A stretch of 64,000 bases of DNA from a bacterium (GCA_030428125.1 JAUIBF010000001.1:14102-78101), one strand, 5' to 3'; positions 2,049 to 32,235 are shown, counted from the stretch's first letter. A program made the numbers and translations. Notes: generated by a model not told the origin, from the letters alone.

Positions 2049-2567
2049 TTACTCTTTTTTTGACGAATCTCTGTCGTAGTAACGTTTGACCATGTATACT
2101 CTCGCGAGCGATTCAACTAAAAGAAGACCTAGTAAAAAGGCGACAATTATAGGGAAAACTCCGGTTTCGGGCAGTATATCTTGTTCTGCAAATATTTTAA
2201 TAACAATAAGTGCTGCAAGAGATAATGCAGCTTCCTTATTAGTGTGAAGTACAACAGCCTTATATTTTGGGTAAGCTCTGATGTATGTAGTTTTTGCACG
2301 ATAAGCTCCAAACCAAATACCAAGTATAACGCCAGCTGCAATTGCAAATATGTGTAAAAAACTATTTGCGATGTCAGTAGCCACTAGTGTGCCTACAATA
2401 ATAATTGCAACTAAAGGCTCCAAATACTGCATACGGAGCGTTCGAAAGCGATGAAATTTCTTTAAAGTAATATCATCATTTTCCTTTACAATTGCATTGC
2501 TGCGCCTAAACTCTTTAGCAATGACTACTAATAGCACTAAAACAGCTAATGTACTAAATTGCTCCAT
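2049..2567 (-). CDS. integral membrane protein, unknown function
   Basis: 172 aa with about 4 hydrophobic segments and no recognised motif. Confidence 0.45.
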   Translation of the reverse strand: MEQFSTLAVLVLLVVIAKEFRRSNAIVKENDDITLKKFHRFRTLRMQYLEPLVAIIIVGTLVATDIANSFLHIFAIAAGVILGIWFGAYRAKTTYIRAYPKYKAVVLHTNKEAALSLAALIVIKIFAEQDILPETGVFPIIVAFLLGLLLVESLARVYMVKRYYDRDSSKKE

Positions 2568-2755: not shown

Positions 2756-3070
2756 CTATACGTTAGAAAAACTGGCCTTAATCGCGAAGTAACGACGACG
2801 TCTCCAGTCTACGCCATTTTGTTTGAGGCAGTACTTAAACTTACGGTAATTCATAGTGTGTTTTGCGCCGTTACACATGTAGCAAGATGCAACCAAGTTG
2901 TTAAGTTCTGTTTTCCCACCTTTAGAAAAGGGTATCTTGTGGTCAACATGAAACCCTTTGACGCTAAGTTCTATGCCGCAATAATGACAACTACCTTTAT
3001 CAAGGTTATAAACCTCAGTTCTTTGCAGACTATTTGCATATCTAAGTACCGCCTCGGCCATAATTTGCAT
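2756..3070 (-). CDS. HNH endonuclease
   Basis: CHYCG...HVDHKIPFSKGG...NNLVASCYMCNGAKH is the canonical HNH/zinc-finger signature. Confidence 0.85.
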   Translation of the reverse strand: MQIMAEAVLRYANSLQRTEVYNLDKGSCHYCGIELSVKGFHVDHKIPFSKGGKTELNNLVASCYMCNGAKHTMNYRKFKYCLKQNGVDWRRRRYFAIKASFSNV

Positions 3071-3139: not shown

Positions 3140-3214
3140 TGGCTCCGGAGACTGGATTCGAACCAGCGACCTCGAAGTTAACAGCTTCTTGCTCTACCAC
3201 TGAGCTACTCCGGA
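3140..3214 (-). tRNA. tRNA-Asn (GTT), CCA encoded
   Basis: The reverse complement TCCGGAGTAGCTCAGTGGTAGAGCAAGAAGCTGTTAACTTCGAGGTCGCTGGTTCGAATCCAGTCTCCGGAGCCA folds as a cloverleaf. The anticodon loop is CTGTTAA. Confidence 0.9.
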
Positions 3215-3247
3215 ATATCTTCTTATGTCTCTTGTTGCTCAGGAAAA

Positions 3248-3316
3248 GAGCAGCCGGAGCGTCGGATTTATTCCGCGCACCGCGCGATGAGAAAAACCTG
3301 GGTTTTTCTCATGAGC
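3248..3316 (-). ncRNA. unclassified two-hairpin RNA motif, copy 1 (5' leader of tRNA-Asn)
   Basis: Sense sequence: TCATGAG-AAAAACCcagGGTTTTT-CTCATCGCGCGGTGCG-CGGAATAAATCCG-ACGCTCCGGCTGCTC. It is homologous to 31701-31768 with compensatory stem changes and lies between a consensus promoter and the tRNA. Confidence 0.5.
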
Positions 3317-3337: not shown

Positions 3338-3366
3338 ATTATACGTTTTTTTGAGATTATCGTCAA
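3338..3366 (-). promoter_or_regulatory. consensus sigma70 promoter for the leader and tRNA-Asn
   Basis: In minus sense: TTGACG (3366-3361), a 17-nt spacer, TATAAT (3343-3338). Confidence 0.65.
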
Positions 3367-4195: not shown

Positions 4196-4226
4196 AATAG
4201 TTGTAAGAAGCATAAGGGAGATAAAA

Positions 4227-4976
4227 ATGACGATTAACATCACGCCCAAAAAGCTATTAAAAATTGTAGAAATACTTTTATTGGTAGTAATTCTTGGGTT
4301 ATTAGTGTGGTCACAACCATGGGAAAGTGAATCTAGCGCACAGACCAGAACTATAACTGTGAACGGCGAAGGAACGGTTGAGGCAGCTCCAGATGAATTT
4401 GTATTGTCGCCATACTTTCAACTAAGTGGTACCGACGAAAAAGAGATTCAGGCTCAGTTAACTCAGCAGGCAAACACTGCAGTAGAAGAGATAAAAAAGC
4501 TTGGTGTGTCTGAGGACAAAATTGAACTAGATGCAAGTAGTTATGATTACTGGTACGCACGAGAAGATGGTGAAGGCACCTTAACTATACAATTGACCAT
4601 AACACTGAACGATGAAGATACGGCACAAAAAGTTCAAGATTACTTATTAACATTAGATAATATAGAGGGCCAACTAACACCTCGTGCAGGTTTCAGTAAA
4701 GAAAAATCTAAGGAACTAGAAAATGAGGCAACCGACAAAGCGATCGAAGATGCAAGGCAGCGTGCCAATAGGCAAGCCGAATCATTAAACGCTGAAGTAG
4801 GTGAGGTGATTACAGTTGGAGACAATGGCTATACTGACGGACCAGTACTTTATGACGATTTAGGAACAGCAGAATTGCGAGTAACTGAAGACAGTCAAAG
4901 CAGCACTTCCTTACCAGTGTTACCGGGTACAGATGAATATACAAAAACGATTAACGTTACATTTGAGTTAAAATAG
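4227..4976 (+). CDS. SIMPL/DUF541 domain protein (periplasmic immunogenic protein-like)
   Basis: An N-terminal TM anchor is followed by TITVNGEGTVEAAPDEF, typical of SIMPL domains. Confidence 0.65.
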   Translation: MTINITPKKLLKIVEILLLVVILGLLVWSQPWESESSAQTRTITVNGEGTVEAAPDEFVLSPYFQLSGTDEKEIQAQLTQQANTAVEEIKKLGVSEDKIELDASSYDYWYAREDGEGTLTIQLTITLNDEDTAQKVQDYLLTLDNIEGQLTPRAGFSKEKSKELENEATDKAIEDARQRANRQAESLNAEVGEVITVGDNGYTDGPVLYDDLGTAELRVTEDSQSSTSLPVLPGTDEYTKTINVTFELK

Positions 4977-30576: not shown

Positions 30577-31695
30577 ATGTCTGACTTACGAAAAGCCCTT
30601 TTGCCTATAACTACCTTTGTTCCGATGGATATAAAACGTCTTTTTCGCGACAAAGTTGCAATTTTCTTCGTATTTGTTTTTCCATTAATTTTCCTACTCA
30701 TTTTCGGGAGTATTTTTAGTGGTGACAACAATGTATCTTTTAGAATTGCTGTGTTTAACGAATCCGACTCAGAAATTGCAAATGGTCTAGAATCACAGAT
30801 GATAGATAATGATTTCTTCGATGTTGATGAAGAAGTTACGACTACCGTTCAAGCTAATGAAAAAATGGGTCGTGGGCAACTTGATGCAACTGTAACTTTG
30901 CCCTCAGATTTCGGCCATTCTCAGGAAGGCTCAAGTGGTCCATCCGGAAATATTGAGATTACCTACAACCAATCAAACGAAAATGCAGGTCGTACTCTAG
31001 CGTCAGTTTTGGATTCTATGATGAACGAAGTCAATTCTCAATTTGTTGATACTTCTGTACCGTTTACAGTCACTGCTGAATCTACTGCTAGCGAAGGATT
31101 GACCCAGTTCGATTATACATTCTCAGGCATTCTAGGCTTTACACTACTTTCACTTGGGGTTTTTGGCCCAACAACTGTATTTCCAAGGTTGAAACAAAAA
31201 GGAGTTTTACGACGCTACAAATCAACTCCACTGAAGGTCTGGCAGTTCTTTGTTGCTAACGTGCTATCTAATGCGTTTGTTGGTTTGCTGGCACTAATTA
31301 TCATGTTCTTGGCCGCAGTATTCATTTTTGATCTAAATATGCGTGGAAGCATAATCAATCTTTCAATTGTGGTGGTTCTGGGCACGATATTGTTGTTTGG
31401 AATTGGTCTAGCCGTTGGTGGATGGGCGAAAAATGAAAATCAAGCAGCACCAATAGCACAATTGGTTACTTTGCCAATGATGTTCCTGAGCGGCGTGTTC
31501 TTCCCAGTTTTCTTGATGCCAGAATTACTCCAGAACATCACTAGATTCATACCACTAACACCGATAATTGACTCCATCCGTTTGGTTATAACCGAAAATG
31601 CTAGCTTAATCGACTTAGCTCCTGAACTAGGAATTATGATCGGCTGGACGGTGATTATTTATCTGATTGCTTTCAAACTCTTCTCTTGGGAGTAG
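30577..31695 (+). CDS. ABC-2 type transporter permease
   Basis: 372 aa with one N-terminal TM segment, a large loop and 5 C-terminal TM segments. It is adjacent to the ATPase gene. Confidence 0.75.
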   Translation: MSDLRKALLPITTFVPMDIKRLFRDKVAIFFVFVFPLIFLLIFGSIFSGDNNVSFRIAVFNESDSEIANGLESQMIDNDFFDVDEEVTTTVQANEKMGRGQLDATVTLPSDFGHSQEGSSGPSGNIEITYNQSNENAGRTLASVLDSMMNEVNSQFVDTSVPFTVTAESTASEGLTQFDYTFSGILGFTLLSLGVFGPTTVFPRLKQKGVLRRYKSTPLKVWQFFVANVLSNAFVGLLALIIMFLAAVFIFDLNMRGSIINLSIVVVLGTILLFGIGLAVGGWAKNENQAAPIAQLVTLPMMFLSGVFFPVFLMPELLQNITRFIPLTPIIDSIRLVITENASLIDLAPELGIMIGWTVIIYLIAFKLFSWE

Positions 31696-31700
31696 AGTTT

Positions 31701-31768
31701 CATGAGAGGAGGTGACTCCTCCCCTCATCGCGCAGGAAAACGGAATAAATCCGTTTTGCTGGCTACTC
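31701..31768 (+). ncRNA. unclassified two-hairpin RNA motif, copy 2 (3' UTR of the ABC operon)
   Basis: TCATGAG-AGGAGGtgactCCTCCC-CTCATCGCGCAGGAAAA-CGGAATAAATCCG-TTTTGCTGGCTACTC. It has the same architecture as 3248-3316 in minus sense. Confidence 0.5.
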
Positions 31769-31784
31769 CCCACCCAAAGAAAAA

Positions 31785-31810
31785 GCCACCCTTACAAATG
31801 GGTGACTTTT
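31785..31810 (+). terminator. Rho-independent terminator
   Basis: GCCACCC-ttacaaat-GGGTGAC followed by TTTT. Confidence 0.6.
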
Positions 31811-31842
31811 CTGGTTCCAGCTGGCGCTAAATTACTTTTGTA

Positions 31843-32043
31843 ACTCTTACTTCTTCGCAAGAAGGTTGCGCAGCCATTTCGAAATCGCTGGTAACCGCCG
31901 CTTCATGAAGACGGCTGTCTCTCAAGACGCTTTTATTCTATCACAAGTTTGCATTAAGCAATAGGATTATGCGTAGTATTTTTAACATACAAAAAGGCCG
32001 GCTTATTGCCGGCTAATTTGTCCTTTTGCGAAGAAGTAAGAGT
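31843..32043. repeat. 18-bp perfect inverted repeat bracketing 165 bp of ORF-free sequence
   Basis: actcttacttcttcgcaa (31843-31860) is the exact reverse complement of ttgcgaagaagtaagagt (32026-32043). Confidence 0.8.
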
Positions 32044-32235
32044 GCAAGCACACATGGTCTATGCGTGCTGTCAAGCAGTATGCTTGCGTACTAGATTGTA
32101 TAATGTCAACTACTTTTGTGCAATATTAGTGTTCAAAAGTACAACAAATAACTCTTTAAAGGCGCTAATGTGATATTAATCAAAGTTGTAAAAACTATTG
32201 AAAAATAAGCACAAACGTGATATAATACTAATACT

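Follow-up and report, generated by a model that had tools for sequence, protein, structure and literature searches.

A probably mobile, hairpin-based intergenic repeat of Saccharibacteria with a putative third strand

Repeats with the potential to fold into intrastrand triple helices were reportedly described by Hoyne and Maher in 2000 as the BoxC or PIT repeats of Escherichia coli, other Proteobacteria and Cyanobacteria. In the excerpted text of Holder et al. (2015; PMC4666352) the E. coli repeats (TM-ECO) are intergenic, without strand bias, found in inverted pairs and not reported to be linked to mobile elements; they are 37-nt G/C-rich sequences of the form C9-loop-G9-loop-G9 with loops of 3-6 nt (consensus CCCTCNCCC-N3-6-GGGNGAGGG-N3-GGGNGAGGG), and the same excerpt uses class III for pyrimidine-motif and class I for purine-motif intrastrand triplexes. 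Here we describe an element that occurs twice in a 64,000-nucleotide stretch of bacterial DNA (GCA_030428125.1, JAUIBF010000001.1:14102-78101, analysed at its full length and hereafter called the window). On one strand its parts follow each other in the order hairpin P0 (where present), hairpin P1 with a purine-rich 5' arm, a 1-nt junction, hairpin P2, UG, and a pyrimidine tail. An earlier note, made from the window's sequence alone, had taken the two copies for a structured RNA motif and proposed looking for more in relatives, where many were indeed found (86 copies or more, spread over about 60 genome bins of Saccharibacteria). We consider the element, with a probability of roughly 0.6, to be a non-autonomous mobile intergenic repeat specific to Saccharibacteria, in which conservation applies to the fold of a single strand, be it DNA or RNA, and not a dedicated RNA gene. 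Literature searches, including full text, returned no Saccharibacteria repeat or RNA motif of this kind, and the family has not been described before.

The BoxC/PIT/TM-ECO repeats are the closest known analogue, with the same genomic behaviour and the same triplex logic. Like them, the Saccharibacteria element is multi-copy, strictly intergenic and without strand bias (29 copies sense and 28 antisense to flanking genes; GC skew 44:42), forms occasional inverted pairs (here at loci L060 and L072) and contains three collinear blocks that satisfy triads (517 of 563 layers), with the complementary triplex class on the other strand; as far as the excerpted source goes, both also lack a link to phages or plasmids and an assigned function. 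The two are nevertheless different in sequence, architecture, host clade and insertion evidence. There is no sequence similarity, the hosts are Saccharibacteria, and the TM-ECO consensus does not describe the element, whose second "loop" is the conserved 33-40-nt hairpin P2, which carries an extra 5' hairpin (P0) and whose purine tract is a mixture of A and G with an obligatory skipped layer. TM-ECO is one fixed sequence, whereas the triads of the Saccharibacteria element covary across many sequence types. Finally, its copies come with target-site duplications and empty sites, and the excerpt of PMC4666352 mentions no such duplications. The mechanism by which the element is inserted may be new.

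The family was collected in one scan of 185,579 species genomes using the pattern TCATCGCGC-N4-12-GGAATAAATCC. This gave 90 stretches, about 70 of them with complete copies in Saccharibacteria/Saccharimonadales bins; the remaining 20 or so came from unrelated phyla, lay mostly in coding sequence and were chance matches. A covariance model built from 63 copies was searched across the fetched loci (8-kb stretches around the pattern matches, not whole genomes; cited below by their L numbers) and returned 86 copies. Sixteen of these lack the search pattern, their P2 apex being swapped for other hairpins and one of them carrying a 119-nt variant, so the apex is excluded from the universal core, which consists of the P1 base (ATGAGA/TCTCAT), CGCGC, the P2 base, and GCTG with the tail. 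The core measures about 75 nt and the element about 105 nt when the 5' P0 hairpin and a ragged 3' flank are included. P0 lies 2 nt upstream of P1 in full-length copies; as a complete three-pair hairpin it is present in 19 of 84 copies, with stems covarying between GGC/GCC and GCC/GGC. Saccharibacteria genomes are tiny and streamlined, and carriers hold roughly one copy per 30-35 kb despite this: the density in carriers' flanks is about one copy per 35 kb (16 extra copies in about 560 kb; the window has 2 in 64 kb), and that in unselected Saccharibacteria loci about one per 120 kb. Convergent inverted pairs were seen at L060 (1888-1963, plus strand, and 2167-2247, minus strand) and at L072 (4091-4162, plus strand, and 4198-4272, minus strand).

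The most unusual feature of the element was missing from the earlier note: the pyrimidine 3' tail covaries with P1 in a parallel (mirror) register. The P1 arm GAGACAAACC is accompanied by the tail CTCT-TTTCC, GAGACAAAAC by CTCT-TTTTC, GAGACACCCC by CTCT-TCCC, GAGAGGGG by CTCTCCCC, GAGAGGAGG by CTCTCCTCC, GAGGGAACC by CTCC-TTCC and, in a divergent copy, GGGAGGGG by CCCTCCCC. The register is constant. At the foot of P1 the linker T covers the A-T pair and the linker G the T-A pair, and CTCT follows over GAGA; layer 7, usually a C.U mismatch, is skipped by the tail in every case; beyond it, each A-T pair is matched by a T and each G-C or C-G pair by a C. This third-strand rule holds in 92% of the layers (517/563), and 269 of the 303 variable layers obey it, compared with 179 +/- 9 when tails were shuffled among copies, a level reached by none of 5000 shuffles. 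Mutual information is highest between matching columns of the P1 arm and the tail. Three exceptions place A over an A-T pair, which gives allowed T.A-T triads only on the purine-motif strand.

The topology is coherent, the tail leaving the 3' end of P2 only 1 nt from the foot of P1 and running up the helix parallel to the purine arm. Since polymerases make direct or inverted repeats and not mirror repeats, a physical interaction would be the simplest cause of such a pattern. The parallel covariation fits a Hoogsteen third strand, that is, a probable intrastrand triple helix; judged from the sequences, the forward strand can close into a class III (pyrimidine-motif) triplex and the complementary strand into its class I (purine-motif) counterpart. 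Antiparallel Watson-Crick pairing between tail and P1 was ruled out, given that the invariant GAGA and CTCT lead on both strands and that the asymmetric types GAGAGGAGG, GGGAGGGG and GAGGGAACC fit in parallel only. To our knowledge, evidence of this sort for triple helices has so far been obtained mainly by crystallography or with sequences that, like BoxC, are single and fixed; covariation of three strands, with a fixed skipped layer and a G over a T-A inversion, is an unusually clean comparative signal.

The hairpins themselves covary in the Watson-Crick sense. Among 85 distinct rows of an alignment that was fitted to the covariance model, that contains related copies and in which two blocks are invariant by ascertainment in 70 of 86 copies, standard pairs occupy 95.6% of the cells and double changes occur at 19 of 23 pairs (260 cells), which bears out the claim of a genuine structured element with abundant compensatory changes. 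The observed pairing was reached by none of 500 shuffles, slid registers likewise came nowhere close, and covarying pairs were found at 8 of 11 positions of P1 and 11 of 12 positions of P2. A census of 1901 cells counted 17 G-U pairs, 30 A-C pairs and 53 other mismatches, and one-sided changes of the wobble type (13 cells) were 20 times rarer than double changes. G-U being not favoured over A-C and one-sided changes being rare, the structure is expected to pair on both strands or as DNA, and not as an RNA of one sense. Sorted by transcribed sense, reverse contexts hold 3 G-U and 8 A-C and forward contexts 8 and 11, counts too small to weigh.

That the copies are insertions is indicated by their flanks. 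Direct repeats of at least 8 nt flank 16 of 83 copies (1.8 with randomly paired flanks), repeats of at least 10 nt flank 9 (0.16) and repeats of at least 14 nt flank 5 (0.05); pseudo-elements shifted by 300 or 600 nt have flanking repeats in 3% and 0.6% of cases. The longest are those of L080 (23 nt), L029 (20), L061 (18), L064 (16) and L059 (14), followed by L037, L066 and L067 (11 nt each), L017 (10) and several copies with 8, so that perfect duplications range from 8 to 23 bp and imperfect ones extend to about 30 bp. P0 falls inside the target-site duplications of L064, L080, L059 and L029. Inspection of the insert ends between the duplications in L064, L261, L080, L059 and L029 revealed no terminal inverted repeats.

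Empty counterparts were found for two occupied sites. At L080 an insert of about 106 nt (P0, core and 14 nt) lies 23 nt inside lepA, between two perfect 23-bp repeats of ATGGACCAGAATAATATCCGTAA, of which the downstream one restores the gene; the counterparts L259 and L260 (LepA 82-83% identical) have murJ followed by lepA at 0 and 31 nt, with the element absent. L064 and its relative L261 (91% identical) have a common insertion at the ftsX stop codon with a 16-bp duplication, AAAACTCAACCGCTAA, and a single copy of the target without the element is present in L262 (87%) and L263 (84%). For the site behind the window's ABC-2 permease gene 80 orthologous loci were compared (44-70% identity): the element is present only in L190 and, degenerate, in L235; L187 retains a remnant and the others have unrelated sequence. 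Both window copies lack target-site duplications and copy 2 carries two triad-breaking changes, which marks both as old insertions. As a side observation, the upstream repeat at L080 (3853-3980) keeps the lepA ATG and opens a decoy open reading frame (ORF) of about 50 codons that runs through the element ahead of the restored start. The remnant at L187 (3608-3680), in the position after the stop codon of the ABC-2 permease gene, is decayed, with P1 intact, P2 mostly deleted and a fragment of the tail.

Orientation was compared with flanking genes for 84 copies; the genes, called roughly but conservatively, were tRNAs and ORFs of 100 aa or more within 200 nt. Both neighbours lie on the element's strand in 15 copies and on the opposite strand in 16; they diverge in 8 and converge in 3; where one neighbour was resolved it was sense in 14 and antisense in 12, and 16 copies have no neighbour within 200 nt. 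The orientation is thus random (about 29 sense to about 28 antisense). Many antisense copies occupy a whole intergenic spacer, as at L032, where the antisense element lies 6 and 19 nt from genes of 447 and 1280 aa, the latter with its Shine-Dalgarno sequence directly next to the element. No replication-strand bias is evident from the GC skew at the copies (44:42). No conserved promoter was found upstream of the element; promoter-like sequences occur just upstream of P0 in a few copies (e.g., L012, L080 and copy 1). The copies have neither their own promoter and terminator at conserved distances, as independent small RNA genes would, many lying 0-20 nt from genes on both sides, nor the constant orientation and recurrent gene class of a cis-regulatory RNA or riboswitch, their neighbours being diverse.

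A tRNA gene boundary lies 1-7 nt from the P1 end in 10 of the 84 copies. In eight the P1 end adjoins the 5' end of an opposite-strand tRNA (L005, L009, L010, L014, L042, L076, L084 and L088), and in two the element follows the 3' end of a same-strand tRNA (L006 and L062). For five of the eight with an opposite-strand tRNA (L010, L014, L042, L076 and L088) a strong promoter stands past the element at a distance of 22-43 nt, so there the reverse sense is the tRNA leader, just as the forward sense is the leader of tRNA-Asn in the window. The element was rejected as a tRNA promoter, having no -10-like sequence at the right distance and the real promoters beyond it. All ten tRNA-adjoining copies lack P0, as if the tRNA had taken its place or marked a preferred target. 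At L060 and L021 elements abut the 5' end of an opposite-strand 5S rRNA gene (recognised by eye), and at L013, L015 and L038 a conserved S20-like (rpsT) frame (..SSAG[IV]RRIKA..) directly follows a reverse-oriented element; no canonical start codon was found for this frame, which runs into P0 in two of the three loci.

Copies of one genome have private variants in common despite different P1 types: GCTGCG in both MGCX01 copies (L028 and L064), a 2-nt linker deletion in both CAZOZI01 copies (L049 and L080), and an identical alternative P2 apex in two copies at L065 (3742-3816 and 5977-6049). To judge from this, the copies of a genome either evolve in concert or co-evolve with a factor specific to that genome. 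Together with the differences between L064 and L261 described below, it is compatible both with active copies converting others and with selection that acts on the fold after insertion.

In the mobile-repeat reading, which we favour, the fold (P0, P1, P2 and the third strand on P1) is most likely, by analogy with structure-dependent mobile repeats, the substrate of a trans-acting enzyme. The putative enzyme would recognise the folded single strand, DNA or RNA, and then copy or insert the element, and such recognition would keep the helices and the triplex intact. The tRNA-Asn leader would contain copy 1 and the 3' untranslated region of the ABC-2 operon copy 2, both being transcribed and folding, and any effect that they may have on processing or stability would be secondary. 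Several observations weigh against this reading. The duplications do not abut the core, being separated from it by 6-30 unconserved nt at the 3' side and 6-32 nt, often with P0, at the 5' side, so that they delimit neither the actual ends of the element nor a mechanism; few of the transposition mechanisms known from bacteria would give duplications that vary so much in length. C over C-G pairs, which is not a canonical triad, occurs in 117 cases. The invariance of CTCATCGCGC and GGAATAAATCC is partly by construction, as 70 of the 86 copies were found with the pattern that fixes them. All-against-all clustering of 439 ORFs within 3 kb of copies gave no cluster larger than five and no recurrent family, and the 87 pattern matches of an IMG/VR scan were all due to chance, none of them fitting the covariance model and no copy lying on a viral contig. 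Of 72 nt, 9 are not shared by the orthologous copies L064 and L261, and two compensatory double changes in P2 are among these differences; at the ABC-2 site the P1/tail type is a different one in the window, in L190 and in L235, yet each is internally matched. Such differences suggest selection on structure after insertion (a host function) or gene conversion, and not a purely selfish passenger.

A host function is the substance of one alternative, which we rate as unlikely but as deserving some weight: the repeat would have been domesticated as REP-like punctuation, its hairpin and triplex fold acting in either orientation at the boundaries of transcription units, where it could block exonucleases, mark processing sites in mRNA or tRNA precursors, or pause polymerase on DNA. 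Such a role would suit the tight placement at gene ends, with start or stop codons 0-20 nt away, the occurrence in either orientation in tRNA leaders, where the element stands between the promoter and the tRNA, the P1 ends 1-7 nt from a tRNA gene boundary in the 10 copies of 84 noted above, the compensatory changes separating L064 from L261, the matched but different P1/tail types at the one ABC-2 site and the persistence of the element in strongly reduced genomes. Most orthologous sites are empty, however (about 76 of the 80 ABC-2 loci, as well as those at lepA and ftsX), so that no given site needs the element; the neighbours share no gene class, the conserved single-stranded blocks and the strand-specific tail exceed the needs of a generic hairpin, and the variants shared within genomes can account for the apparent compensation by gene conversion. 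The reading of the earlier note, an RNA acting in the sense of local transcription, was not supported by the survey, in which orientation was random across 84 copies, G-U was not favoured and the copies turned out to be insertions. In that reading the pyrimidine-tail strand would act in cis as a signal for stability or processing, bind a protein or encode a small RNA, with the RNA 3' end tucked into a U.A-U / C+.G-C triple helix, and we now think it quite improbable. Roughly every second copy runs antisense to genes that flank it tightly, without room for a promoter, no promoter is conserved at a fixed distance, G-U is not enriched, and the target-site duplications and empty sites mark insertions and not conserved genes. 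Runs of adjacent C+.G-C triads are unfavourable at neutral pH, and the GGGG types would require four to six of them. What speaks for a sense-specific RNA is that both window copies lie in the sense of local transcription, that the geometry is coherent on one strand, with the tail coming from the P2 3' end at the P1 base parallel to the purine arm, that promoter-like sequence precedes P0 in a few copies (L012, L080 and copy 1), and that the pyrimidine motif is the only triplex motif known in RNA, according to the excerpted text of PMC4666352.

Retroposition in the manner of short interspersed nuclear elements (SINEs) was weighed as well and seems very improbable. A forward-sense transcript with its 3' end in the triplex would be reverse-transcribed at staggered nicks, which would yield duplications of variable length and either orientation, and this agrees with duplications of 8 to about 30 bp, with terminal inverted repeats not being found (by inspection), with ragged unconserved sequence at the junctions and with copies at L019, L048 and L017:7845 that lack the canonical P1 5' arm and keep all 3' parts. 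Two of the latter (L048 and L017:7845) are orthologous and have a replacement hairpin of their own, however, which makes 5' truncation uncertain; no A-rich tail was seen on either strand and no internal promoter either, G-U is tolerated no more than A-C, and no reverse transcriptase was identified, the genomes not having been searched whole. We know of no endonuclease-dependent retroposon of a SINE-like kind in bacteria. Returning to the mobile repeat, a bolder form of it, in which the transposition intermediate is recognised via an intramolecular triple helix and inserted with variable duplications and without inverted repeats, possibly through an RNA intermediate (a bacterial SINE-like retroposon), is tentative, and we hold it possible at somewhat unfavourable odds. 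If true, it would be the first natural family to show Hoogsteen-type (parallel) covariation in dozens of independent variants, and bacteria of the Candidate Phyla Radiation, with their reduced genomes, would have a new mode of mobility. The mechanistic question raised is what inserts an element of about 100 nt without inverted repeats and with duplications of 8-30 bp. In Saccharibacteria bins the element can also mark insertions and rearrangements of recent date, and unless described it is likely to be repeatedly mistaken for a "novel ncRNA" by annotators and RNA-motif hunters.

Other repeat families are more distant. REP/REPIN sequences are likewise short, structured and intergenic, occur in both orientations at gene ends, keep their stems by compensatory change, evolve in concert within a genome and can stabilise transcripts, but they are imperfect palindromes of 20-40 nt with a GTAG-type head and not two hairpins with a tail. 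They are mobilised by RAYT, Y1 transposases of the type of the insertion sequences (IS) IS200/IS605, whose insertion makes no duplications, and the variable duplications of 8-23 bp therefore argue against such a mechanism; no RAYT gene was found among the ORFs within 3 kb of copies, the genomes not having been searched whole. Miniature inverted-repeat transposable elements (MITEs; Correia, RUP, ERIC and Nezha) are small, non-coding, non-autonomous, intergenic, flanked by target-site duplications and co-transcribed with their neighbours, as is the Saccharibacteria element, which differs in having no terminal inverted repeats, in a duplication length of 8-23 bp that is not fixed, and in two hairpins with a third strand in place of one long hairpin. 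Variable duplications and missing inverted repeats together count against an ordinary MITE of the DDE type, and we know of no autonomous IS related to the element. The earlier note had held that a match to a known REP/MITE family would speak against its reading; in behaviour the element is indeed such a repeat, but no known family was matched.

Long target duplications of variable length are made by IS of the IS1634/IS1549 type and by the target-primed insertion of SINEs and long interspersed nuclear elements (LINEs), and the Saccharibacteria element resembles both in this respect. The former, unlike it, are autonomous IS with a transposase and inverted repeats, and the latter are eukaryotic retroposons with A-rich tails; none of these features was seen here. 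If the forward strand folds as RNA, its U.A-U and C+.G-C triads would be like those of RNA major-groove triplexes (the MALAT1/PAN ENE, the telomerase RNA pseudoknot and the SAM-II, SAM-V and preQ1-II riboswitches). Those are sense-specific genes or leaders in fixed contexts, with third strands that are mostly U-rich or A-rich, whereas the element is dispersed, variable in orientation and has a pyrimidine tail. An integron attC site was rejected, the alignment containing no R''/R' core sites (RYYYAAC ... GTTRRRY) and the orientation being random and not constant behind cassettes.

The two look-alike sites of the window were found where the earlier note had put them, both reaching slightly further at the 3' end. 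Scored with a covariance model made from copies of other genomes, copy 1 (3242-3314, minus strand) reaches 89.5 bits (E = 4e-16) and copy 2 (31700-31774, plus strand) 70.0 bits (E = 3e-12). The same search with filters off gave no third site in the 64-kb window (best remaining score at most 19 bits), so the similarity of the two is far beyond chance. They share the blocks TCATGAG, CTCATCGCGC, CGGAATAAATCCG and GGCT(R)CTC, separated by stems which, when both sites were read and then aligned, differ in sequence with pairing kept, as had been claimed; a further compensatory site, absent from the earlier note, lies at the base of hairpin 2 (CGG/CCG against CAG/CUG). Compared with shuffles, the folds have z = -3.5 (copy 1) and -4.3 (copy 2), and the opposite strands fold about as well (z = -2.5 and -4.7). 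A coding role is disfavoured here too, the reading frame not being kept across P1 length variants in a check by eye. Rfam, to which the note had pointed, has no family matching either site: at the gathering threshold Rfam 15 reports only three tRNAs and a LOOT RNA in the whole window, and permissive searches at both sites gave nothing overlapping the element below E = 0.5.

Copy 1 reads, on the minus strand, a weak two-pair form of the small upstream hairpin P0 (3315-3322, CGCTTCGC in place of GGC-TTC-GCC), P1 with its purine-rich 5' arm (3287-3312, ATGAGAAAAACC / GGTTTTTCTCAT), the conserved CGCGC junction (3282-3286), which overlaps the base of P2, P2 with the conserved apex CGGAATAAATCCG (3253-3285), and the third-strand tail TG-CTCT-TTT-CC (3242-3252), parallel to the P1 5' arm AT-GAGA-(A)-AAA-CC. 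The P1 of copy 2 (31702-31728, plus strand, like its other parts) is ATGAGAGGAGG-TGACT-CCTCCCCTCAT with one A.C mismatch, a type also present in L091 and L066:7493, and its P2 (31730-31763) is GC(G)CAG-G-AAAACGGA-ATAAA-TCCGTTTT-G-CTGGC. The tail, TA-CTCCCCACC (31764-31774), matches the P1 arm GAGAGGAGG in parallel save at two positions, which makes copy 2 slightly decayed; the unblemished form of this tail, CTCTCCTCC, is carried by L091.

Both copies lie in the sense of local transcription, as the note had stated, which is a coincidence of two copies. The sigma-70-like promoter (TTGACG-17-TATAAT, 3338-3366, minus strand) that drives the transcript with copy 1 and tRNA-Asn lies outside the element and is present as claimed, although it is not perfect, matching at 11 of 12 positions. 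The tRNA-Asn gene (3140-3214) follows on the same strand 27 nt downstream of copy 1, with a BacA/UppP gene divergent from it and an HNH endonuclease gene downstream. The latter stands alone directly past tRNA-Asn (2759-3070, minus strand, 104 aa, Pfam PF01844), is preceded by a promoter-like site at 3099-3071 and has no recurrent association with other copies. Upstream of copy 2 lie an ABC ATPase gene and the ABC-2 permease gene (Pfam PF12698 and PF01061), whose stop codon (31693-31695, plus strand) is 6 nt from the element; the terminator beyond copy 2 was also recovered, as a terminator-like hairpin at 31787-31804 (plus strand) that spans 31787-31812 with its T run. This hairpin belongs to an ORF-free spacer of 460 nt (31775-32235), which holds a second, bidirectional one at 31996-32014 and a strong promoter-like site at 32198-32226, followed by two ORFs without a Pfam match. 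Elsewhere in the window, the LOOT RNA (Rfam RF03000; 53858-53973, minus strand), a candidate small RNA of unknown function, is a full-length match with 70.1 bits against a gathering score of 46.4.

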